Virus record (IMG/VR): IMGVR_UViG_2526164619_000014
DNA: 14,356 bases
DNA from: a virus
Lineage: Duplodnaviria; Heunggongvirae; Uroviricota; Caudoviricetes
Direction: 5' to 3' (one strand)
Shown here: piece after piece, positions 2,058 through 14,356 of the stretch
How the letters are laid out: every line of letters begins with the position of its first letter
How positions within the stretch are numbered: the stretch's first letter is position 1
Translations under genes and position numbers: made by a program
The notes under the pieces: generated by a model
Databases searched by the model: none
What the model was told of the DNA's origin: nothing
What the model saw: the letters and a program-made list of their open reading frames with translations, nothing else

Positions 2058-2132
2058 GTCCTCTTAGTTAAATGGATATAACGAGCCCCTCCTAAGGGCT
2101 AATTGCAGGTTCGATTCCTGCAGGGGACACTT
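2058..2132 (+). tRNA. argW: tRNA-Arg (anticodon CCU), argW type; the genomic 3' end reads A-CTT rather than A-CCA
   Basis: Cloverleaf folded by hand: acceptor GTCCTCT (2058-2064) pairs with AGGGGAC (2122-2128); D arm GTTA/TAAC; anticodon stem AGCCC/GGGCT with loop CTCCTAA, anticodon CCT at 2091-2093; T arm GCAGG/CCTGC with loop TTCGATT; discriminator A at 2129. Bases 2130-2132 are CTT. Confidence 0.85.
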
Positions 2133-2304
2133 TAAAGACCTTTCTCTACATTTCACTTCATTACATAACCACTTAAAAAAACAGTAAGTTATCACCGAAT
2201 CGGCCTGATTTTCATTTCAGTTAATTTCATGACATTACAACCTCGTGATGGTATAAGTGATGGTATTCCCCAGTTCGATATGCAGATACCATCAATTTAC
2301 CAAA

Positions 2305-3590
2305 ATGAGTACAGATATGGCCATTAATGTGCTTTCCCCCAAACAGATAGAAAACGCCAAGCCGAAGACCAATGATTACAAACTTACCGATGGAGGGAGT
2401 TTGTATCTACTGGTACGAAAGACTGGTGGAAAATACTGGCGTATGAATTATCGTTTTGATGGAAAACAAGTGACATTGGCATTAGGGGTCTACCCAGATG
2501 TCTCACTTGCAACAGCGCGGAAACGGCGTGATGAAGCCAGGCAACTACTAGCCGATGGTCGTGATCCTCGCGAAGCAAAGAAACCCAAAAAGGAAGACCC
2601 AATTTCCCCCACGTTCGAGAGTGTTGCCAGAGAGTGGCATAGTGGAACGATGGGGCATCCTGAGTGGAAAGAGATCACCCGTAAAAAATTCTCCGAGAAA
2701 TGGAAAACCACCTCTTTCCTGCCATCGGTTCAAAGCCTATCGATACGCTCAAAACCCGTGACTTGATGCCGATGCTGGTTGAGATGACTGAGAAAGGAAT
2801 TGGTGCCACAACGAGCCGTGTAAAAACCACTATGACGAGCATCTTCCGTTATGCCGTGCAACGTGGAATTGTCGATTACAACCCTGCCCACGATCTAAAA
2901 GGTGCAATTACGGCCCCCAAAGTACGACATCGCCCCGCACTACCTCTCGAACGTTTACCTGAACTGTTAGCGAAAACGAGAAGTTACACGGGAAGACCAT
3001 TGACTCGCCTAGCAGTTCTCTTTTCCCTGCACACTTTTGTGCGATCCAGCGAACTACGACATGCCAGATGGGAGGAGATCGACATTGAAAATGGGCTATG
3101 GACGATACCAGGACAACGTGAAGAGATCGCAGGGGTTAAATTCTCAGATCGGGGTGCAAAGATGGGGGCTGCTCATTATGTCCCGCTATCTAGTCAGGCT
3201 ATCGGGGTACTGGAGGATATAAGGAAAATCAGTGGTGAATATCTGCTGGTTTTTCCCGGTGACAGCAACCCATATAAACCGATGAGCGAAAACACAGTTA
3301 ATAAAGCACTGCGAACGATGGGTTACGACACTCAAACTGATGTTTGCTTGCATGGGTTCAGGGCGATGGCCTGCTCTGCACTGACCGAATCAGGACTCTG
3401 GTCACGCGATGCAGTTGAACGGCAGATGAGTCACCAAGAAAGAAACGAAGTGCGGGCAGCATATGTGCATCTTGCGCAGCACATGCAGGAACGCCGCAGA
3501 ATGATGCAATGGTGGTCTAATTATCTGGAACTAAATAAGGACGAATTCCATGCTCCTTATGACTTATCAGGTATTAACATTATCAATTAA
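2305..3590 (+). pseudogene. int: P4-type tyrosine integrase, reading frame broken in an A6 run (2683-2688); N-terminal part 2305..2766, catalytic part 2700..3590
   Basis: N-terminal ORF carries the P4-integrase-type N-terminal domain (..YKLTDGGSLYLLVRKTGGKYWRMNYRFDGKQ..). Second ORF carries the tyrosine-recombinase catalytic domain (..HGFRAMACS.. and C-terminal ..AAYVH..). Adding one A to the run at 2683-2688 gives a continuous ..RKKILREMENHLFPAIG.. reading. Start is ATG 2305 or 2317; the 2257 extension of the ORF track is unlikely. Lies directly 3' of the tRNA, as expected for the integrase of a tRNA-inserted element. Confidence 0.85.
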
Positions 3591-3620: not shown

Positions 3621-4502
3621 ATGCAGCATTCAACAGAGAATGAAACTATATTCTTAGGAAATCTATGGATTGACAAAAAAATACCACCATTAGAATATTG
3701 TTCATTTGAACGCGCTTCAAGACTATTAGAATGCGAGATTGATGATTTATTACATCTATACGAAATAGGCGCTTTTAATATCGCATTCAAGGCGGATGGA
3801 CTTGCAGTTAGATTTAATGTTAATTTCCTCAATAAAAATCAGAAAATGGAAATTGACTTAATTCATCCCGTATTAACTAATCAATCACTAGAGATGGAAT
3901 TTTCAACAATATGGTATGACCTTAAAGATGATTCCTTTGAACATTTTGAAAATGGGCTTCAAATTATAGGATTTGCCTGTGGTATTTGGTACGCCGATGA
4001 TATGATAAGTGACATAAAAAATGGATTAGCTATAGATCCAGATTATGAATTCAGGCTTAAACCGGTAAAAATACGAGATAATGTTTTGATGGCAACGGCC
4101 TCATATGAAGGAAATAAGGTCATTGAGATTCCATTTGAAGATCTTCTTATCATGCGAAGAGATTTAGAGTTAATATGGAAATCAGTAAAAACTGGAATTC
4201 CTATGCCAAGTTTACTTACGAAAAGAATTTCATCTGAACCTAAAATCCCCAAGCGATTAAATAACACTGCTGAGCATCATGCAAAAAATAGGGAGGGGTT
4301 ATTAAATGCAGCCATATATATATTAGCAAAATACCCAAGCGAATGTCGTGGTGAAAGAAAAGAGATAAGTCCTGAAAAGTGGACTAACGCCATAATTAAA
4401 CATTTAGGAGAGCTACCTCCAATATTTATCACTAATGAACAAGAAATCTTAAGAAAATTACGATTAGCGGTTAATCATGCGGGATTAAAACAAAAGGGGT
4501 AG
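3621..4502 (+). CDS. hypothetical protein (293 aa), AT-rich, no recognisable domain; sits between int and alpA
   Basis: Uninterrupted ORF with a good Shine-Dalgarno (AGAGG shortly upstream of ATG 3621). Clearly lower G+C than the flanking int and alpA genes (judged by eye). No motif I can assign. Confidence 0.6.
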   Translation: MQHSTENETIFLGNLWIDKKIPPLEYCSFERASRLLECEIDDLLHLYEIGAFNIAFKADGLAVRFNVNFLNKNQKMEIDLIHPVLTNQSLEMEFSTIWYDLKDDSFEHFENGLQIIGFACGIWYADDMISDIKNGLAIDPDYEFRLKPVKIRDNVLMATASYEGNKVIEIPFEDLLIMRRDLELIWKSVKTGIPMPSLLTKRISSEPKIPKRLNNTAEHHAKNREGLLNAAIYILAKYPSECRGERKEISPEKWTNAIIKHLGELPPIFITNEQEILRKLRLAVNHAGLKQKG

Positions 4503-5709: not shown

Positions 5710-5850
5710 CAAAATACCGCTGAAAACGGAGTAATCCACGATGAATATTTCAAACGGGCACAACGGTGCTCAGGGCCACACTTTGCCTGAAAAACACAAT
5801 ACCGGTGCTGAGGTGTACTGGCAATAGCGGACACTACCATTTGTTCTTTT

Positions 5851-6713
5851 TTAAGCAGCCATCTGATGATATTTTTCCCTGAAGGCTGCCGGGGAGATAT
5901 TTCCCAGACGAGAGTGACGACGCTGACGATTGTAGAAAATCTCAATGTATTCCCGTATTACTGAGATGGCTTCATCCCGGTTATTAAAACGATAGTGGCT
6001 CAGGCTCTCATTTTTCAGCGTTCCCCAGAAGCTTTCCATCGGAGCGTTGTCGTAACAGTTACCTTTACGCGACATTGATGTTTTCAGACCAGACTGCTCC
6101 TGTATGACCCGGTAATCGTATGCGCAGTACTGTGAACCTCGATCAGAGTGGTGGATTAGCCCGGCAGGTGGGCGCTGGCTCCTGAGCGCCATAAACAGGG
6201 CTTTACCTGTCAGCTCTTTTGTCATGCGCTCTCCCATGGCGTAGCCGACAATTTCGCACGTATAAACATCTTTAATGCCAGCGAGGTACAACCATCCCTC
6301 CTGTGTGGCAACATACGTCAGGTCCGCCACCCAGACCTGATTTGGTGCTGTAGGAGCGAACGTCTGGTTCAGCAGATTTGGCGCAACTGGCAGATTGTGG
6401 TTCGGGTTCGTAGTCGCTCTGAACTTGCGTTTCTGCTTACAGCGTAGCCTTAGCTCCTTACGAAGACGTGCCAGTCGGTCACGACCAACGATGATGCCAT
6501 TCTCTGCCAGCTCCGTCTGGAGCCGCCGGGTTCCATATGTTTCGAGTGCGGATATGTGCCACCTTAATCTCCAGTTTTAGCCGCCCATCACTTTGTTTTC
6601 TGTCTGAGGGTTCATGCTGTACCCAGTTGTAATAACCGCTCCTGGATACACCAAATACCTGACACATCGCTTCAATGGGAAATTGTTGTCGCCATTGTTC
6701 GATTAACGCGTAT
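5851..6713 (-). pseudogene. IS3-family transposase OrfB (DDE catalytic domain); reached from orfA by the usual -1 frameshift but carrying an additional frame break near 6540-6545
   Basis: N-terminal part in the -1 frame (..AEKYALIEQWRQQFPIEAMCQVFGVSRSGYYNWV..IRTR). Catalytic part 5851..6330 (..HHSDRGSQY.., ..GNCYDNAPMESFWGTLKNE..) is in a different frame. Minus-strand read CGCACTCGAAACATATGG is consistent with one extra base or two missing bases. Confidence 0.7.
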
Positions 6714-7005
6714 TTTTCAGCGACTCCTGTGCAAAATACGCTGTTGCTTTTTTTAATATATCTCGCTCAAGGCGAGCTTCATTTAACGCCTTACGCAGTT
6801 GCAGAATTTCAGATTCCAGTTCAGCCACCGTGCGGGAACCAGGAGTACCGAGCCCTTTTCTGGCGGCGGTAACCCATTGTCCTAAAGTGCCTTCAGGAAG
6901 GGATAATCGGGAAGCGCCTTCACTGATCGAAAGTTGATTTTCAAGAACCGTTCTGACAGCTTCGGCTTTGAACTCTTTAGAGTAACGTTGGTTTTTTCTG
7001 CTCAT
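6703..7005 (-). CDS. IS3-family transposase OrfA (HTH / leucine-zipper part)
   Basis: 100-aa ORF MSRKNQRYSKEFKAEAVRTV.. ending ..KKATAYFAQESLKNTR, the typical IS3-family OrfA C-terminus. Overlaps the orfB frame in -1 at the A-rich motif GAAAAAT (about 6707-6713). Confidence 0.9.
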   Translation of the reverse strand: MSRKNQRYSKEFKAEAVRTVLENQLSISEGASRLSLPEGTLGQWVTAARKGLGTPGSRTVAELESEILQLRKALNEARLERDILKKATAYFAQESLKNTR

Positions 7006-7285
7006 TATTAGCTCCTTCTGATGCCATTCTATTTCAGGAAGGAGTGTCCGTTAAACTCAGGCTACCTCATGCTTTTGCCTATGGGTTGTCAGAGGACAGT
7101 TTCGGAAAGCTGACCCGCGCAAGAAATGCCTGCGACATGCTCCAGCTTCTCTTTTCTGAATACCCGTCTCAGGCCGGAGCACTGGACGCAGGCTGTGCGC
7201 CTGGTGTCGCCGCGCTGATGGAGTACCTGCTGGCAGATTTGACGGATATTGCACACAGCTGCGCACTGATTGAAGGAGGTGCCAG

Positions 7286-7669
7286 ATGAACCAGCCGCAG
7301 GTTTCCATTTTCCCGGTAGAAATGACCACCGCGCTTTACCGGCGGGCTATTGCTTCAGCATGGCGGCAGAAAATGCTGAACGAAACTGGCAGTGATCAGT
7401 ATGGTCCGCACAGCCTGACGGTGGAGCGTATTGAAATGGCCATTGCGCTGCATATCGAGTGCGTACTGATTAACGAGTACGGCGAAGTGCAGGGCGCCGC
7501 TGCCGCGCTGGCACTGCTGACTGACATGCTGGAGCCGTCACTGCTGACCGCGCCGCCGGTACTGACCGCGCGCGGCTGTGAAGTGATGGCGGAGATGTAC
7601 CGCACGCTTCCGGCGGCATTTGATGACTTCTGCAGTACCGGTGTGACGTTGTATGAGGGGGAAGTATGA
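7286..7669 (+). CDS. hypothetical protein (127 aa), second gene of the primase operon
   Basis: ATGA overlaps at both ends (7286-7289 and 7666-7669) couple it to the flanking genes. No recognisable motif. Confidence 0.6.
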   Translation: MNQPQVSIFPVEMTTALYRRAIASAWRQKMLNETGSDQYGPHSLTVERIEMAIALHIECVLINEYGEVQGAAAALALLTDMLEPSLLTAPPVLTARGCEVMAEMYRTLPAAFDDFCSTGVTLYEGEV

Positions 7670-10338
7670 CAATACAGACGGTTACGCAGGTTTCAGCCGC
7701 CGCACGGGGGAAATGGCCCGTTATTCTGCAGATGCTGCGTATTGATGTACCTGAAAACGGCAGGCACGGTCCCTGCCCGAAATGTGGGGGCAAGGATCGT
7801 TTTCGCCTTGATGACCTTGACGGGCGCGGGACGTGGATCTGCAGCCAGTGTGGCAATGGTGACGGTCTGGATCTGGTTAAGCTCGTAACCGGTTACAGCG
7901 TCAGAAAGGCTGCGCAGGAGGTGGCGCAGGTGCTTAATGTGCCGGATATGCAGGAACTGCCTGTTAAGCCTGCCAGACAAAAAGCCCCTAAACGCGACAT
8001 GGGTCTTACCGTGGCGGCGCTGATGAAAGAGAGCCACACGGGAGAAAGCGCCTATCTGACAGGAAAAGGGTTCGCCGGATACCCGGCCTCTCTGACCGGA
8101 AGCGTACAGCATATCAGCGGTAAGGATTTTCCTGCCGGTTCCCTGCTGTTACCACTCACGACCAACACCGGAGCCGTGACCGGTGCACAGCTTATCGCCC
8201 CGACGGGTGAAAAAAGCATACTGCCCGGCAGCACGATGAAAGGCGCGTTTGTGTCGCTCAGCCCGTTACCGTCTGAACCACCGATACAGGTGGTGATTAC
8301 CGAAGGTTACGCTACGGCGCTGACGGTAAGCCAGCTCACTGCCGGATGCGTAGTGGCTGCCATATCTGCGGGCAACCTGCCCAATGTGGCGCAGTCGCTG
8401 CGGGCACGCTGGCCTGAGGTAAAAATTATCATCGCCGGTGATAACGATTTTCAGGACGGGGGTGAGAATCCCGGCAGAGCCTTTGCTGAACGGGCGGCAA
8501 AAGCTGTTGGCGGCTGGATGACGCTGCCACCAGGAGAGATTAAGGCTGACTGGAATGACTTTCATCGGGAGCACGGTATTACCCGTGCCCGTGAAGCCTT
8601 TCGCAACGGTCTGGTACTCTGCGGGGAAAGCCGCACGCAACTGCCGCACGGGTTCCGTCTTACCCAGGAATATCTCTGGTATGAAAAGCAGGTACAGCGC
8701 AACGGTGAGACGGAGATCCAGAACGTCAAAATATGCAGCCCGCTGCGCGTGACGGCAATCACCTGCGATGCCGATGGCGGTAACTTCGGACGACTGCTGG
8801 AATGGGAAGATACGTGGGGTGAGTGTCGCCGCTGGGCGATGCCGATGGAAATGCTGAGCGGCAGTGGTGAGGAACTGCGCCGGGTACTGCTGGTTAACGG
8901 GCTGTCTTATATCAGCACCACCGGTGAGGCACGCGCACGCCTGATGGAATATATCTCACTGTGTAAACCGGAACGCCGCGTGACCTGCATCAGTCGTACT
9001 GGCTGGCATGGTCAGGTTTACGTCCTGCAGGATGAGGTCAGCGGTGAAGGTGCAGAGGGTGTCATTCTCCAGACCACTTCCGTGCAGGGGCGTGATTTCC
9101 GCGTGTCGGGCACAACAGAGGAATGGCGGGAGCATGTATCCCGCTACTGTACCGGCAACTCCCGCGTGGCATTTGCTGTCAGCCTGGCCTTTGCTGCACC
9201 ACTGTTACGGCTGGTTGGTATGGACGGCGGCGGCTACCACCTCAAAGGGGAATCGACAGACGGTAAGACCACCACCATGAAAGCAGCAACCTCCGTCTGC
9301 GGCGGGCCTGACTACTGGCAGACATGGCGGGCCACCGGCAACGCGCTGGAGGGATGCGCCAGCCGCCGCAACGATGCCGCCATGATGCTTGATGAGATCC
9401 GGGAAGTTGACGGACGCGAGGCAGGCAATATCGCCTACATGCTGGCAAACGGTCAGGGCAAGGGCCGTGCCGGTACGGACGGTGAGCTGCGTACCCGTAA
9501 GCAGTGGCGCCTGTTGTTCTTTTCAACTGGCGAATTGTCTCTGACCGAACATGCGGCAAAGGCCGGTGAGCGTACTTTTGCCGGGATGGAAGTCAGGATG
9601 ATCCAGATCCCCAGCGATTCCGGGAAGTTTGGCGTTTTTGAGGAGCTGCACGGCTTCGACAGCGGCAAGGCTCTGGCAGAGCATCTTGAATGGGCCACGT
9701 CCTGCTACTACGGTTCGCCGTTCCGGGAGTGGCTGAAAGCACTGACCGCTGATCTTAACGGACTAACGGCACAGGCAAAATCGCTGATGAAGGAATATGC
9801 TGCCGCCCTGACTCCGAAAGATGCAGGCAATCAGGTGGGCCGGGCTGTGAACCGCTTTGCACTGGTGGCGATGGCAGGTGAACTGGCAACCCGTCTGGGT
9901 ATCACCGGCTGGCCTGAGGGTGAAGCACTGCGGGCAACCCGCGTCTGCCTGAACGCATGGCTGAAAGATCGCGGGCACACCGCCAATCAGGAAGATATCG
10001 CCGCACTGGAGCAGGTTCGCAGTTTCTTTACCGCGAATCAGTACAGCCGCTTTGCAGACTGGTATGACGAGCGCAACCGCCCCGGCAATATGGTGGGCTG
10101 GCGAAGGGTGGAGAAAGGCAGTACCGCGCAGGGCACGGAAGCTGTCACTACGTTCTATGTCATGCCGTCCGGCTGGAAAGAAATCTGCAGGGGATTTGAC
10201 CCGCGCAAGGTGGCGCGTCTGTGCGCAGATCGTGGATACCTGCTGCCCTCCACTGATGGCAAACTCCAGACAACCATTCGCCCGCCAGAGATGAATCCCC
10301 GCAGGCTCTATGTCTTCAACAGCGAGGTGCCGGGTTAA
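7666..10338 (+). CDS. P4 alpha-like primase/helicase (zinc-binding N-terminus, TOPRIM primase, D5-type P-loop NTPase)
   Basis: 890-aa ORF. N-terminal CPKCGGKDRFRLDD..WICSQCG zinc-ribbon typical of P4-family primases. Walker A GESTDGKT at about residue 525. GAGGGGG Shine-Dalgarno before ATG 7666. Confidence 0.9.
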   Translation: MTIQTVTQVSAAARGKWPVILQMLRIDVPENGRHGPCPKCGGKDRFRLDDLDGRGTWICSQCGNGDGLDLVKLVTGYSVRKAAQEVAQVLNVPDMQELPVKPARQKAPKRDMGLTVAALMKESHTGESAYLTGKGFAGYPASLTGSVQHISGKDFPAGSLLLPLTTNTGAVTGAQLIAPTGEKSILPGSTMKGAFVSLSPLPSEPPIQVVITEGYATALTVSQLTAGCVVAAISAGNLPNVAQSLRARWPEVKIIIAGDNDFQDGGENPGRAFAERAAKAVGGWMTLPPGEIKADWNDFHREHGITRAREAFRNGLVLCGESRTQLPHGFRLTQEYLWYEKQVQRNGETEIQNVKICSPLRVTAITCDADGGNFGRLLEWEDTWGECRRWAMPMEMLSGSGEELRRVLLVNGLSYISTTGEARARLMEYISLCKPERRVTCISRTGWHGQVYVLQDEVSGEGAEGVILQTTSVQGRDFRVSGTTEEWREHVSRYCTGNSRVAFAVSLAFAAPLLRLVGMDGGGYHLKGESTDGKTTTMKAATSVCGGPDYWQTWRATGNALEGCASRRNDAAMMLDEIREVDGREAGNIAYMLANGQGKGRAGTDGELRTRKQWRLLFFSTGELSLTEHAAKAGERTFAGMEVRMIQIPSDSGKFGVFEELHGFDSGKALAEHLEWATSCYYGSPFREWLKALTADLNGLTAQAKSLMKEYAAALTPKDAGNQVGRAVNRFALVAMAGELATRLGITGWPEGEALRATRVCLNAWLKDRGHTANQEDIAALEQVRSFFTANQYSRFADWYDERNRPGNMVGWRRVEKGSTAQGTEAVTTFYVMPSGWKEICRGFDPRKVARLCADRGYLLPSTDGKLQTTIRPPEMNPRRLYVFNSEVPG

Positions 10339-10370
10339 GGCTTTGCGTGAGTCTTATTTATTAAGGGTAA

Positions 10371-10560
10371 CAGGTGAAACAGGTGGAACAACCGTATTTT
10401 ACAGGGCTGAACCTGTTCCACCTTCTGAAATAGTGAGGTGGAACAGATGTAACGCCAGCCAATCCGCTGTTCCACCTTGTTACCCGCGATGTTCCACCGG
10501 TGCAGTGTATATAAATGCCTTATAAAACAAAGCTGTAACACATGTTTCACCTGTTCCACC
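10371..10560. repeat. iteron array (putative replication origin / crr-like region): six copies of TGTTCCACC in both orientations plus two GTTTCACC variants and an AT-rich box
   Basis: TGTTCCACC at 10414-10422, 10468-10476, 10490-10498, 10552-10560; GGTGGAACA at 10382-10390 and 10437-10445; variants at 10373-10380 (complement orientation) and 10544-10551. AT-rich stretch 10505-10540. Lies directly 3' of the primase gene. Confidence 0.6.
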
Positions 10561-10648
10561 GCATCAGGGACATAAAGCAGACTGAAACAGAGGGCATTTT
10601 TATCTGGCTGGCTTTCATAGCCACGTCTGAATAACCGCAAGCGCCCGT

Positions 10649-10704
10649 TGTGCCAGCCACCACACACTGAGCACCGATAGTGTGCTTGTGTCAGCCACGA
10701 CACA
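10649..10704 (+). promoter_or_regulatory. candidate late promoter region for the sid-like operon with two TGT-N12-ACA dyads (Ogr/Delta-type activator sites)
   Basis: TGT 10649-10651 / ACA 10664-10666 and TGT 10687-10689 / ACA 10702-10704, 35-90 bp upstream of ATG 10739. The dyad is short enough to occur by chance, so this is tentative. Confidence 0.35.
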
Positions 10705-10738
10705 ATTGACGTAACGAACCAACCCGACAGGAGAAGTC

Positions 10739-11482
10739 ATGAACAATACCGCAGTAAATAACAACCTTTCCACTTTTCCGGCTGTAACGCAGCGGGCACT
10801 GGAAACCATGAACACAGCCAGAAACGCATGGCTTGAAGCACGTCGTCAGCAGAAAGCGGCAGCGGATAATATTGCGACAATCCGCCAGCGTCGCGCTGAA
10901 ATGGAAGCCACGACGAACACACTGAATGAGGAGTGGCGCACGCTGTTTCGTGAAAGTCAGGGCGTGGTCTCAAAGGAAATGAAAAAACTGCGCACGGAAA
11001 TTGCGCTGGGACGAGAAACGCTTGAGGATTTTGATGAGCTGCTGGCGGCTCAGGAAAGCGAAAATGCACTTTTGCCGCAGAAAGCTGCAGAATTAGCCGG
11101 AAAGTATATCCACGCGCATAACATTCTTGTGGATATTCGCGCAAAACAAATCTGGGAGGATTTTATGCAGTCGCATGGAAAAGCGCTTATTCAGACGCTG
11201 AGCCTGCTTAAATCCACAATGGGCCGGGAAGCCAGTGCCGTTGTGGGTGTGGTGAATTCAGTTAATGACCCGGACACAGTGCTGAAAGACTTTATTCATA
11301 AACATATCACCAGACCGGCTCTGGCTAACGATGCGATGCCTGAGCAGGACCCGGTGTTTAAACTGGCGGGAGTTGCCCCGGATTATGCGGCGCGTCTGGA
11401 TTTCAGTAATCAACTCTCTCCGGCAGCTATGCATAAAATTAAGGTTCGTCAGGAACTCGCTGAGAAGGAGAAAGCAGTATGA
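10739..11482 (+). CDS. sid: Sid-like protein (P4 capsid size-determination / external scaffold homologue)
   Basis: 247-aa alpha-helical, charged protein; size and position (first gene of the late operon, followed by Psu-like and Ogr/Delta genes) fit P4 Sid. N-terminus resembles the Psu-like protein downstream. Assignment by context and recalled similarity only. Confidence 0.5.
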   Translation: MNNTAVNNNLSTFPAVTQRALETMNTARNAWLEARRQQKAAADNIATIRQRRAEMEATTNTLNEEWRTLFRESQGVVSKEMKKLRTEIALGRETLEDFDELLAAQESENALLPQKAAELAGKYIHAHNILVDIRAKQIWEDFMQSHGKALIQTLSLLKSTMGREASAVVGVVNSVNDPDTVLKDFIHKHITRPALANDAMPEQDPVFKLAGVAPDYAARLDFSNQLSPAAMHKIKVRQELAEKEKAV

Positions 11483-12030
11483 CGGCCCGAGGCACGCCTG
11501 ACCAGGCACTTACCAGTTTTCGGAATGCCCGTATTCTGTGGGCCGGACATAGTGAGAGCCGAAAAGCCGTTGAACAACAGATAACATCTCTCCTCGCTGC
11601 CACAGAAAAACCAGCAGATTATGCCCGACAGCTCGAATTACTGCGGGAACGTCTGGATGTGCTGAAATGGCAAATTAACTGTGCTGCGCGCGAATGCATT
11701 TACGCGCAGCATTTACTGATGGAGGCCTGCACAGAAGCCGCTCTCAGCAATTTTATGCAGGCGAATGGGGCAGCCCTGACATCTGCACTGGCTCCGTTCC
11801 TGAAGGGGCGCGGAGGGGTTGACGTTGCGTCCCGTATATTACGCAGTGCTCTGGTTCGCCAGCTGGCAATAACACCGCCTGAAATTGCCGGGGATTATCG
11901 TGAGATCCTGGATGAATCCGGTTTGATACCTGACCCCGGGATGATTCGTGATTGCCAGGACTCTTACACCCCGGCACAACATCTGCATTTTCAGCAACGC
12001 CTGAATGACATTAACGATATACAGGAGTGA
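11479..12030 (+). CDS. psu: Psu-like protein (P4 polarity suppression protein homologue)
   Basis: 183-aa ORF, ATGA-coupled to the preceding gene. Contains ..KWQINCAA.., ..FMQANGAALTSALAP.., ..YTPAQHL.. which match motifs I recall from P4 Psu (not verified by search). Confidence 0.6.
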   Translation: MTARGTPDQALTSFRNARILWAGHSESRKAVEQQITSLLAATEKPADYARQLELLRERLDVLKWQINCAARECIYAQHLLMEACTEAALSNFMQANGAALTSALAPFLKGRGGVDVASRILRSALVRQLAITPPEIAGDYREILDESGLIPDPGMIRDCQDSYTPAQHLHFQQRLNDINDIQE

Positions 12031-12308
12031 TTTTAAGGGCACTTAAATGTCCGGAATGCGGTACAGTTGCACACGCCAGAACAGCAGCCTATGAAGCTCC
12101 GTCAGTTAAACGCTCGTGGTATCAGTGCCAGAATCTGGAATGTTCCTGCACATTTACGGCACTGGAGAGTGTGGATAAGATAATCATGAAACCCCGGCGC
12201 AATGAACAGGAACCAGACAAATCACACCCCCCGGTAAAACAACAGCAAACGCTCAATCGCTATGGCTCCGCGTCAAAACTGTCAAGCCGTCAGCAGATTC
12301 CTGTCTGA
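12027..12308 (+). CDS. Ogr/Delta-family zinc-finger late-gene transcriptional activator
   Basis: ..CPECGTVAHART..YQCQNLECSCTFTALESV..IMKP.. is the Ogr/Delta signature (C-x2-C ... C-x4-C). Apparent GTG start overlapping the psu-like stop (GTGA). Confidence 0.85.
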   Translation: MILRALKCPECGTVAHARTAAYEAPSVKRSWYQCQNLECSCTFTALESVDKIIMKPRRNEQEPDKSHPPVKQQQTLNRYGSASKLSSRQQIPV

Positions 12309-12328
12309 TTAGAAAAAACGCCCACGTA

Positions 12329-12353
12329 ATCCCGGTCGAGTACCGGGATTTTT
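12329..12353 (+). terminator. intrinsic terminator of the late operon
   Basis: Perfect 8-bp stem ATCCCGGT / ACCGGGAT with 5-nt loop, followed by TTTT; 20 bp after the Ogr/Delta stop codon. Confidence 0.7.
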
Positions 12354-12380
12354 AACACCTTTTCCCTGGCTGGCCTGAGA

Positions 12381-12495
12381 GCGCATGAGTGCATGTCTAT
12401 AGCGCATGAAAACGCATGAACCTTATGCACCATTTTTGACGAGAAAGCCCTTGTGTGGTGGCTTCTGAGACGATTTATGAGGTGCATGAAAACCA
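12381..12495. repeat. cluster of GCATGA(A) direct repeats in the intergenic region after the late operon
   Basis: GCGCATGA 12381-12388, GTGCATG 12389-12395, GCGCATGAAAAC 12402-12413, GCATGAA 12414-12420, GTGCATGAAAACC 12483-12495. Function unknown. Confidence 0.4.
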
Positions 12496-12791
12496 GTCTG
12501 TTAAGCGAAGCGGGCAGGCGTGCGGGGCTGTTCGCATCAACATAAAAATAACGGGCTGATATAGTTATAAAATCAAATGAACTCTTTTAGTACGACATGG
12601 GTATGTGCGCCAGTAGCAACGTCAGCCCCCAAGCTTTCTATTGTTCTTTTCTGTTGTACCATCAATACGTACCGATTAGCTCCTAAGCATCAATATCAGT
12701 TTGAACGTATTGCTTTGAACTAATTTTTAGATGATTTTTTTCATTAAAAATTATAATGTTGTAGATAAAAAGAGAATCTTATAGAGGCGTT

Positions 12792-13480
12792 ATGTCAAAT
12801 AAAGTTGATGTTTTTTGAGCCGAGTTAGCCATGTATCACAGTTTGTATTGGTGGCATTTGCTATTTTTGGATATTTTTATACAGTAAGACCAATTTACCA
12901 AAAGGAACTTTTATCAGAAGAAATTGCAAAAAAAGAAGTTGAATTAAATAAATTAAAAACTGCAATGGAAAACTCCCAAAAATTTATAGAGAATAATAAA
13001 ATCTTACGAAAAGAATTGGAGGGAAGCATTGCCAAACTTGATTTACAATACAAAGAATCAGAAGAAAAATTAAATTCAATAAATTCTGAACTAAGAAAAA
13101 CTTTAAATGAACTAAATAAACAAAAGACCATTGCCAAAAGAGCGGTCAATGCAAACAACAAGAATCTTGAATCTGTTTTCTGGGAGAATTTTTCGGGGCT
13201 AGTTGGAGTAGTTTATATTTCTAAGAGCACAGATTTTGTGAACAATACACTGGGTGACGCCAAAACAGCCTATAATACTCCTAGTAATTTATATATATCT
13301 CCTTATGATGCAATTAATGAAGCATTAAAAAATGGCAATCATAACTTTATCTCAAGTTCAGAAAATGTCCCTGAAAATATCCGCAACAAAATTCTAGCAA
13401 AGATCCGTCGCGCTATTGAAAAAAATAAGATTTCATTAACAAAAAACCTATCGGTTTTGATGAAAAAATTAATAGCCTGA
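12792..13480 (+). CDS. cargo protein A: membrane-anchored coiled-coil protein of unknown function (about 229 aa if read from ATG 12792 through a one-base frame break in the T6 run 12811-12816; the ORF track gives TTG 12815..13480)
   Basis: AGAGG Shine-Dalgarno then ATG 12792 encodes MSNKVDVF and stops at TGA 12816-12818; the long ORF continues in the -1 frame from 12815. The joined N-terminus MSNKVDVFLSRVSH.. aligns with the in-frame N-terminus of the downstream paralogue. One hydrophobic helix (FVLVAFAIFGYFYTV), then a K/E-rich coiled-coil-like region. Strongly AT-rich. Confidence 0.6.
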
Positions 13481-13921
13481 TAAAAACTATAGAGTCAACT
13501 AAGTTACGCAAAAATGAAAACGAAATAATGAAAAATAACACTGCAGAAAGAGAACTATCATCTTATATTTTCCTGATAAATGGTCAATCAAGAATCCGCG
13601 CCATGGATTTCTTAAAAGACATTCAACATTTAGACTAATATTGGATATCTTATAATGAATACTAATACTAAATTTGATTTATGGTTGATTAGAGTAAGTT
13701 ACATTGCCCAAGTTGGATTGTTTTTTTGACAACCTTTACAATATTTTACACAGTAATTCCGATATACCAAAATGCAAATCTGCAGGAATCAATAGCAAAA
13801 AAGAAATCGAATATAAACAATTACAAGACAAAGAAAAACTCTATATTTAAAGTTAAGAAAGGAATATTCAAGAAAATATGTTGTTGATGCAATCTCCCAA
13901 TGTTCTCCAACAGAAATACTT

Positions 13922-14356
13922 ATGCGTCAACCATCTGAAGATGACAGTAAAAAATCACATGATGTAAGAATGAAGGAATTAAAAACATTTTTAAACAAAG
14001 ATATAACCAGTTGCTTTGAAAAAACTTTTTATAGCAACCCTTACATTAAGGAATTAAGAGACACTGATCAACAAAATATTCTTCTTAAAATTAAAAATTT
14101 ATCCCCCACTATAACTAAACTACATGAAAAATATAAAGCAGAATTTGATGACGATAGCAAGTTATTGAATACTGGAAAAGAAAAATCGACAAGATTAAAA
14201 GAGGTGGAAGATTATTTAATAGGAATAGGAGGTTACACAGAAAACAGCAAAAAGGATTTTGAAAACTCATACATAGAATCTGGAGCATATGACTTGGTTG
14301 TAAGGTATGGTTTTGAAGTCAACGATCTATTTTCCAAAACCATCAGAGACAATTAA
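13922..14356 (+). CDS. cargo protein B, C-terminal 144 aa as an intact ORF; the full paralogous gene probably starts at ATG 13655 and is interrupted by three one-base frame breaks (T run 13721-13727, A run 13797-13802, A run 13834-13838)
   Basis: Reading 13655..14356 with one base added at each of the three runs gives MNTNTKFDLWLIRVSYIAQVGLFFLTTFTIFYTVIPIYQNANLQESIAKKEIEYKQLQDKEKTLYLKLRKEY.. which aligns with cargo protein A over about 70 residues. The C-terminal half is unrelated to protein A. Stop codon is the last three bases of the window. Confidence 0.5.
   Translation: MRQPSEDDSKKSHDVRMKELKTFLNKDITSCFEKTFYSNPYIKELRDTDQQNILLKIKNLSPTITKLHEKYKAEFDDDSKLLNTGKEKSTRLKEVEDYLIGIGGYTENSKKDFENSYIESGAYDLVVRYGFEVNDLFSKTIRDN

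Follow-up and report, generated by a model that had tools for sequence, protein, structure and literature searches.

Two paralogous, predicted inner-membrane proteins as the AT-rich cargo of an argW P4-like satellite and candidates for an envelope-level anti-phage module

What does a P4-like satellite carry in its variable hotspot when the genes found there resemble no recognised defence system? The question is raised by the right-hand end of a 14,356-nucleotide (nt) stretch of DNA (IMG/VR record IMGVR_UViG_2526164619_000014, Caudoviricetes; the whole stretch is called the window), where an AT-rich segment encodes two proteins, A and B. An earlier note, made from the letters of the window, had proposed these genes as satellite cargo and as possible abortive-infection or superinfection-exclusion proteins. 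Judged from their sequences, A and B belong to a large unannotated family in which a constant membrane module carries polymorphic heads, and they make a credible candidate for a new anti-phage module. The reading preferred here, tentatively and with somewhat less than even confidence, is that they form the complete cargo of a P4-like satellite integrated at argW, as two paralogous single-pass inner-membrane proteins in one operon with an envelope-level anti-phage or superinfection-exclusion function. The proteins are described in no catalogue or paper searched; variable cargo in the P4 hotspot is itself well known.

Gene A (12792..13638, plus strand) encodes in its intact form a protein of 282 amino acids (WP_000066845.1), in which a coiled-coil stalk of ~120 residues joins an N-terminal membrane module to a helical-bundle head. 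Gene B (13655..14356, plus strand) begins after a spacing of 16 bp and encodes 234 amino acids when intact (WP_001095698.1), comprising the N-module, a short helix and a helical head in which two cysteines are invariant; the window ends with the stop codon of gene B. The conserved N-module spans residues 4–56 of A (12801..12958, plus strand), with a predicted membrane helix at residues 15–33 (~12833-12889), and residues 6–58 of B (13670-13826, plus strand), with the membrane helix at ~13703-13758. In both cases the helix is only moderately hydrophobic (Kyte–Doolittle 19-residue value, KD19, 1.5-1.8). A and B are homologous over their first 53–55 residues (49% identity, E = 1e-12), a relationship overlooked in the earlier note, and are unrelated beyond.

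The layout first proposed for the two proteins, a tail followed by a single helix, a lysine/glutamate-rich helix and mutually unrelated C-terminal halves, holds for the corrected sequences, whereas heptad periodicity supports the coiled-coil assignment for A and not for B. In a heptad test, the A stalk displays a 3.5-residue hydrophobic periodicity (p ~0.008), and the B stalk gives no significant signal (p = 0.84). In the AlphaFold2 model of an 83%-identical A homologue (mean predicted local distance difference test, pLDDT, 86.7), one helix runs through residues 3–154 and a helical bundle occupies residues 155–282. The corresponding model of a 78%-identical B homologue (pLDDT 87.1) contains a helix at residues 6–84, after which a helical domain follows.

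As written in the window, both same-strand genes are present, but neither is an intact open reading frame (ORF), since five −1 frameshifts spread the proteins across frames. An intact relative, the satellite of NZ_CP148579.1 (L001), served as the reference for indels in a base-by-base comparison. Six 1-nt deletions are found against it, at 12745, 12810, 13440, 13720, 13796 and 13833, every one in an A/T run of 6–8 nt. Those at 12810 and 13440 shift the frame of gene A, those at 13720, 13796 and 13833 shift the frame of gene B, and the deletion at 12745 is non-coding, located in a homopolymer of the leader. A seventh 1-nt loss, in an A7 run at 2682, splits the integrase gene (2257-3590) into ORFs 2257-2766 and 2700-3590. 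No other indels exist in the ~11 kb aligned, and there are ~10 substitutions.

Since intact copies of the cargo are held at 99.5% identity by 7 of 5,426 complete Escherichia coli genomes (megablast), the frameshifts are most likely homopolymer sequencing errors and not decay, and the same type of error in the integrase supports a sequencing artefact across the whole window. It is rather improbable that A, B and int are genuinely inactivated in this strain and that the locus is a decaying remnant. The frameshifts taken as written (two in A, three in B, one in int) and an IS3-family insertion inside the satellite would suit such a remnant; however, each of the seven indels is the loss of one base from an A/T run of 6–8 nt, against a background of ~10 substitutions in ~11 kb, a pattern typical of homopolymer under-calling in long-read assemblies. 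In addition, PMC13586616 reports that pseudogenes of hotspot systems are rare.

Conservation within the two protein families is strongly concentrated at the membrane. The module of A carries the motif SRxSHxSQ-xxLVxxAIFGYFYTVRPIYQKELLSE-IAKKE, and the A family has 14 invariant columns, none of them outside the N-module (L20...E43). In the B family, the invariants outside the module are C84, C121, D139 and Y219. The two cysteines (span 13901..14014, plus strand; C84 codon 13901-13903, C121 codon 14012-14014) are invariant in 19/19 B-type sequences and form a candidate periplasmic disulfide. Mean pairwise identity reaches 75% (A) and 68% (B) in the module, compared with ~30% in stalk and head. 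The ratio of non-synonymous to synonymous substitution rates (dN/dS), computed from the E. coli and Salmonella copies, lies at 0.03-0.04 within the module and at 0.11-0.15 outside it (by gene, 0.04-0.15 for A; 0.03 in the module and 0.15 in the rest for B), and such low values indicate that both genes are maintained by selection. Homologues of A fall into 62 clusters and those of B into 17, mainly from Salmonella, Enterobacter, Citrobacter, Klebsiella, Cronobacter, Pantoea and Kosakonia.

The module reaches far beyond these relatives. A phmmer search with 57 module residues (window 12815-12985) against 1.84 billion representatives returned 425 clusters at E <= 1e-3 (30 of these at E <= 1e-10), most of them 200–330 amino acids long, with the family motif D-x2-L-x-R-x-S-x-x-SQ-x2-L-x3-A-x-FGYFYTV-x-P-x-YQK-x-LL-x-E-x-IAKK. 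Among 120 representatives, 13 have an A-type head and 22 a B-type head; furthermore, 88 heads resolve into 17 single-linkage clusters (sizes 24, 21, 13, 11, 4, 4 and singletons), with the A-type and B-type heads as two of the four largest. The family is essentially confined to diderm bacteria, and the module is conserved in alpha-, beta- and gamma-proteobacteria. Among GTDB species genomes, members were located in Advenella, Rhodoferax, Roseateles, Variovorax, Acidovorax, Dechloromonas, Lysobacter, Pseudomonas, Marinicella, Pantoea and Chimaeribacter, and in metagenome-assembled genomes (two alphaproteobacterial, one Porphyromonadaceae). Pfam searches on 125 diverse members gave no informative fused domain, a further homology search with an N-module profile gave short fragments only, and A searched against plasmids matched through its N-module alone, on two Burkholderia plasmids. 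The family has no Pfam or NCBIfam model.

The orientation of these proteins in the membrane can be estimated from family-wide statistics. The N-terminal tail has a net charge of ~+4 (+4.1), compared with −0.6 for the 15 residues that follow the helix. In a set of 85 representatives, 15 have no cysteine beyond the helix, 2 have one, 42 have two, 5 have three and 21 have four; thus, where cysteines occur, 63 proteins have an even number and 7 an odd number. A positive-inside bias together with a cysteine parity of this kind is typical of exported, disulfide-bonded domains. From this positive-inside bias and the 63:7 cysteine parity, we infer an N-in/C-out topology that would place the variable heads in the periplasm, and such a placement favours an envelope-level role. 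The single-helix anchor proposed earlier is retained, whereas an abortive-infection effector with a cytoplasmic body, as then also considered, fits poorly with charge and cysteine biases that put the heads on the other side of the membrane.

Abortive infection (Abi) is nevertheless the main rival explanation, and an unlikely one rather than a negligible one. The N-module would then be the killing part: the head or the stalk would sense infection, the helices would form a pore or collapse the membrane potential, and the cell would die before phage release. The module is by far the most conserved part of the proteins (68-75% against ~30% identity, dN/dS 0.03-0.04, retained in alpha-, beta- and gamma-proteobacteria), which suits an effector better than a passive anchor, and variable heads on a constant effector correspond to the usual sensor–effector layout. 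Transmembrane proteins of the hotspot are also generally read as Abi effectors (PMC9122126). However, the heads are apparently periplasmic and remote from replication, transcription and capsid assembly, the usual triggers of Abi; a single, moderately hydrophobic helix is unlike any known pore-former; and the cargo contains no signalling enzyme or second component. In particular, no sensor or signalling-enzyme partner of the kind present in Abi systems with transmembrane effectors (CBASS, retron and Thoeris types) is found, the cargo being A and B without an enzymatic domain.

The position of the genes within their element is consistent with hotspot cargo. Host DNA makes up the left end of the window, with MlaA, an FNT-family transporter and then tRNA-Arg(CCT) argW (2058..2130, plus strand; ARAGORN), the left attachment site (attL) of the satellite, and homology to NZ_CP148579.1 begins at 2118, inside this tRNA gene. 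The satellite contains int, an AT-rich ORF of 293 amino acids, alpA, an icd-like gene, DUF5375, an 890-residue primase (alpha), sid, psu and delta. Its P4-like identity follows the RefSeq annotation of the NZ_CP148579.1 satellite, which is 99.8-99.9% identical to that of the window; Pfam recognises Arm-DNA-bind_3, Phage_integrase and DUF5375 in window ORFs, and Psu, Ogr_Delta and Toprim/DUF927 in a Salmonella relative. A P4-like satellite integrated at tRNA-Arg argW is thus supported by gene content and attachment site.

At the right end, delta stops at 12308 and the cargo occupies 12537-14356, with int beside attL at the opposite side of the element. In NZ_CP148579.1, the 3' end of the tRNA (TTCGATTCCTGCAGGG(G)ACAC) is repeated ~600 bp past gene B as attR, directly preceded by ATGGTA repeats that resemble integrase arm sites. 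The interval between gene B and attR is ~600 bp of AT-rich non-coding DNA with zero annotated genes, and no plausible small gene or lipobox ORF is found in it; L001 14000-16450 as a whole is free of ORFs with a lipobox. Since A and B are the only genes between the core and attR there, the cargo is complete and the window loses just non-coding DNA and attR, contrary to the earlier suggestion that the locus might continue past the window's end.

The cargo is clearly set off by composition. Its G+C fraction is 0.299 (12540-14356), compared with 0.506 for 12309-12539 and 0.554 for the alpha-to-delta core (7666-12308), so that a switch to one-third G+C or less, first judged by eye, is now a computed one (29.9% against 55% in the satellite core). 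The switch does not lie immediately past the terminator, as had been described, because a conserved stretch from 12355 to ~12536 intervenes after the hairpin at 12329-12354. This hairpin with its T-run (ATCCCGGT-CGAGT-ACCGGGAT-TTTT; 12329..12354, plus strand), read from the sequence, is the probable terminator of the sid-psu-delta operon; a simple terminator scan gave no entry for it. The intervening stretch (12355..12536, no strand assigned) is the last conserved core segment of the satellite in an alignment of 846 E. coli genomes and may contain cos. The P2/P4 cos 19-mer is not found at <=3 mismatches, the stretch has no blastn match among 50,697 phage records, and the P4 cos junction gives short matches only.

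The same alignment reveals how freely the cargo is exchanged. The psu-delta flank (11479-12540) is common to 846 of the 5,426 E. coli genomes, 7 of which have the A/B cargo, and among the alignments listed the flank ends at query positions 1050-1058, which correspond to window ~12528-12536. At the same spot, four relatives (L013-L016) carry other cargo: an AAA protein with an S8 peptidase; DprA with a gene of no assigned function; an St85 retron; and an ABC-three-component system. The proposal that A and B are hotspot cargo of a P4-like satellite is thereby supported, and the P4 hotspot has been described with the same behaviour of cargo swapping (Rousset et al. 2022, PMC9122126; Moura de Sousa et al. 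2026, PMC13586616). Like known P4 cargo, the A/B segment follows the psu/delta late operon and precedes the attachment site, is AT-rich, is swapped between near-identical cores and forms a short operon with its own leader. Compared with known P4 cargo, int lies at the opposite end of the integrated element, the gene order is sid-psu-delta, and A and B match none of the PADLOC models. Because int is at the far end, published psu-to-integrase extractions would not capture this cargo, a methodological point that concerns this satellite subtype in general.

Association with such a site bears on function. Many hotspot systems have been validated (PMC9122126), and 6 of 8 randomly chosen hotspot loci of unassigned function protected against phages (PMC13586616). 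Since two thirds or more of untested hotspot loci prove defensive (PMC13586616), a new candidate is by itself only moderately surprising; the unusual points in the case of A and B are the design of the family and the apparent periplasmic location. An anti-phage role of A and B is suggested by genomic association only.

Searches for known relatives agree with the initial impression of no recognisable domain and no catalytic signature: with both intact proteins, Pfam, PADLOC, PHROGs and NCBIfam return coiled-coil noise only. In PADLOC-DB 2.0, this noise consists of JetC (0.021) and LeoB (0.18) for A, with none for B. Sequence-profile searches of the PDB with profiles of A, B and the N-module found nothing. 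Neither the accessions nor the motif strings occur in the literature full texts searched, in Rousset 2022 (PMC9122126) or in the DefensePredictor supplements.

Since the heads are predicted to be periplasmic and neither an enzymatic domain nor a partner gene is present, the simplest mechanism for the preferred envelope-level reading would be interference, at the envelope, with the entry (or exit) of phages. In this mechanism, the shared module, in which an aromatic-rich membrane helix (FGYFYTV-P-YQ) is flanked by a basic, predicted cytoplasmic tail and an acidic juxtamembrane helix, would hold the proteins in the membrane and mediate their oligomerisation, or bind a conserved inner-membrane partner. 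Each protein would display a different all-helical head in the periplasm. The head of A would sit on the ~120-residue coiled-coil stalk, estimated to reach far across the periplasm, and the head of B on a short stalk, probably disulfide-bonded. The heads may bind or obstruct a component on which incoming phages depend in the periplasm; a host entry factor and the phage's tail-tip or ejection proteins are examples. A and B, each of which also occurs alone elsewhere, do not look like an obligate sensor–effector pair and are probably two specificities of one family.

Inner-membrane exclusion proteins offer a functional precedent. HK97 gp15, T4 Imm and Sp, P22 SieA and the lactococcal Sie2009, from temperate and virulent phages, are small, non-enzymatic proteins expressed by the resident element; they are anchored by an N-terminal membrane helix, have their body outside the cytoplasm and act at genome entry. 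HK97 gp15, T4 Imm/Sp and P22 SieA interfere with phage entry at the envelope. A and B resemble superinfection-exclusion proteins as small proteins borne on a mobile element, with an N-terminal membrane helix, a predicted extracytoplasmic body and no enzymatic domain. Compared with them, A and B are larger, possess long helical stalks and a conserved membrane module that those proteins lack, and show no detected sequence or fold similarity to them.

Several observations weigh against an envelope-level anti-phage function. No homology to known exclusion or defence proteins is found, in sequence or fold, and A and B have no tblastn match in 50,697 phage genomes, an unusual result for genes of classical superinfection exclusion. 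A passive anchor does not explain why the membrane helix is so extremely conserved, and the heads have a dN/dS of 0.15 with no gene-wide positive selection. The periplasmic topology derives from charge and cysteine statistics, the helix is moderately hydrophobic, and A is cysteine-free. Furthermore, a member in Pseudodesulfovibrio indicus (L008 8001-8633) lies 20 bp after a resistance-nodulation-division (RND) pump gene (MFP + ACR_tran) in a non-mobile-looking context, and another lies near nif genes on a Desulfovibrio-like contig. The P. indicus context warns against taking all members to be anti-phage.

Members of the family recur in hotspots of satellites and prophages and in defence islands. 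The A-B pair stays together down to ~40% identity. It occurs in an Enterobacter P4-like satellite (L002), after alpha and an extra Ogr/Delta gene; in Cronobacter (L003), as part of a reduced int-...-Ogr/Delta-A-B element; in Salmonella, in the same satellite type beside an omptin gene; and in an island (L011) with colicin/cloacin-immunity, HNH, PAAR-pyocin-S and CdiI genes. In five genera, P4-like satellites have a member downstream of Ogr/Delta (L018 included), and a capsid-encoding satellite has a B-like gene after Ogr/Delta. A-type singletons are widespread, and in Pectobacterium a B-type head is mounted on an A-type module beside a RES toxin. In 186/P2-like IMG/VR proviruses (L042-L046), the prophage end is occupied by a member with G+C 0.32, immediately after int, in the order CII-Apl-CI-orf-Int-member. 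Across 103 neighbouring ORFs from 15 loci, matches include integrases, HamA/HamB, HEC-03A, PDC-S31-like, PDC-S37, AbiLi, MzaA, Hhe and RT_UG29, an association that has no background control. Members stand directly beside Hachiman, PD-T7-3-like, HEC-03A, PDC-S31-like and RES-toxin genes, and PD-T7-3-like genes in 3 of the 15 loci are convergent with and adjacent to the member.

Helper-type phages and satellites thus both carry the N-module family, with different head classes. In the 186/P2-like prophages (L042-L046; L023, L025, L026), a PD-T7-3-like gene adjoins the member in several loci. The Enterobacter hormaechei satellite (L002) has two Ogr/Delta genes, one in a sid-delta-psu operon followed by a SIR2/nSTAND gene, and the second (7277-7516) after alpha and immediately upstream of A-B. 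A conserved block of ~100 nt upstream of A is common to the Enterobacter, Cronobacter and L011 loci. These arrangements suggest that an Ogr/Delta-(cos-like block)-A-B segment may have moved as a unit.

The L011 island, with its colicin/cloacin-immunity, HNH, PAAR-pyocin-S and CdiI genes around the pair, is also an argument for a function unrelated to phages. A and B might be orphan immunity proteins against periplasm-acting bacteriocins or against toxins of type VI secretion systems (T6SS) or contact-dependent inhibition (CDI), or might serve a hitch-hiking envelope-maintenance function. There is precedent for disulfide-containing periplasmic immunity proteins anchored in the membrane, such as the colicin M immunity protein, and the singleton beside the RES toxin and the members in non-mobile-looking contexts point the same way. 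This explanation is nonetheless judged quite improbable. P4 hotspots of several genera contain the pair, and members occupy the int-proximal hotspot of 186/P2-like prophages; the P4 and the 186/P2-like int-proximal positions are dominated by anti-phage systems (PMC9122126; PMC13586616). Moreover, the satellite has no cognate toxin gene alongside A/B, and a 120-residue stalk is unexpected for an immunity protein.

A role in the life cycle of the satellite or its helper, whether as spanin-like or lysis-timing proteins in helper-dependent lysis or through interference with the helper, is very unlikely. It draws on the layout of A, which is that of an Rz-type i-spanin, and on a weak PHROG match of A to an Rz-like spanin (phrog_89, E = 0.0084), together with the Ogr/Delta gene directly upstream in several elements. 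Like these spanins, A has a single N-terminal membrane helix and a coiled coil, predicted to be periplasmic, and paired cysteines occur in the wider family. However, A and B differ from Rz-type i-spanins in having no o-spanin partner, lysis cassette or significant homology, and the globular head of A is absent from spanins. No lipobox or o-spanin ORF exists in or beside the genes, no holin or endolysin is nearby, and no Delta/Ogr box lies upstream of A, compared with two before sid. The position is also variable, most related satellites having no A/B, which rules out a core life-cycle function, and many family members reside outside satellites.

Other membrane proteins share parts of this architecture. 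TolA and TonB have the same overall layout, in which a long helical spacer links a conserved N-terminal anchor helix to a C-terminal globular domain, and it fits this comparison that the A/B family is essentially restricted to diderms. However, the module has no SHLS motif at the TolA/TonB spacing and its histidine is variable across the family; A and B have no TonB/TolA match in Pfam, and no ExbBD/TolQR-like genes are found near them. For FtsB/FtsL/DivIC, neither A nor B has a Pfam match, and 1 of 125 family members matched DivIC (2e-5). As an analogy of design only, the A/B family resembles type IV pilins and polymorphic toxins in attaching many unrelated heads (17 clusters among 88), which often have a cysteine pair, to a highly conserved N-terminal hydrophobic module. 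Compared with these, the A/B family has no prepilin-peptidase motif (G-F-x-x-x-E) or toxin domains, and its members are short and all-helical.

A broader proposal, more speculative than the envelope-level reading of A and B themselves and unlikely as it stands, is that the whole superfamily (at least 425 clusters at 50% identity, mostly from alpha-, beta- and gamma-proteobacteria) constitutes a distinct type of envelope immunity, of which A and B would be the earliest members noticed. A near-invariant module (FGYFYTV-P-YQKELLSE) would carry interchangeable periplasmic heads (at least 6 multi-member classes) with specificity against phage entry or exit machinery, shuffled by satellites and P2-like prophages within their hotspots, and the module would plug into a conserved inner-membrane machine or self-assemble. 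Characterised hotspot defences are nearly all cytoplasmic and act on nucleic acids, nucleotides or translation, and few are periplasmic. If the family is anti-phage, it would represent a widespread, periplasm-facing and modular immunity layer with a constant module and swappable heads, and the module motif would provide a handle for finding hundreds more candidates. Even if it is not defensive, the conservation of the helix points to a conserved inner-membrane partner yet to be recognised.

The remaining features of the locus concern the leader and the satellite core. The cargo leader (12537..12791, plus strand) has promoter-like sites, and gene A is preceded there by a Shine-Dalgarno sequence (AGAGG). 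A promoter-like TCAACA-17-TATAGT lies at 12537-12565, and an exact TATAAT lies at 12752-12757. A Delta/Ogr-dependent promoter for gene A was considered and rejected, as zero TGT-N12-ACA boxes occur upstream of it. Two such boxes, at 10649-10666 and 10687-10704, lie 35-90 bp upstream of sid (10739), where their arrangement is the pattern expected of Ogr/Delta-activated late promoters. The late gene order here is sid-psu-delta, compared with sid-delta-psu in P4. Within the leader, an unannotated ORF of 48 codons (MNSFSTTWVCAPVATS...) occupies 12577-12723 and has no PADLOC match.

An IS3-family element at 5810-7069, with orfA (HTH_Tnp_1) at 6703-7005 and orfB (rve) at 5851-6330, both on the minus strand, interrupts a 94-residue satellite gene upstream of DUF5375, and a 4-bp overlap is consistent with a target-site duplication. 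Its orfB appears truncated, possibly through homopolymer errors again. The element is missing from the NZ_CP148579.1 satellite, which is otherwise 99.8-99.9% identical. Directly after int, a second AT-rich accessory gene (3621-4502, 293 amino acids, G+C 0.336) has no Pfam or PADLOC match and may mark a second cargo position of this satellite type. Int-adjacent genes of similar size, compared by size alone, occur in relatives from Salmonella (L048, 292 amino acids) and Cronobacter (L003, 259 amino acids). In NZ_CP148579.1, the satellite stands at argW in tandem with a KplE1/CPS-53-like prophage remnant (ERF, anti-RecBCD, TorI; L001 1-4800) and is followed by a csc sucrose operon, whereas in the window it directly abuts argW, so that the same att site holds different arrangements across strains.

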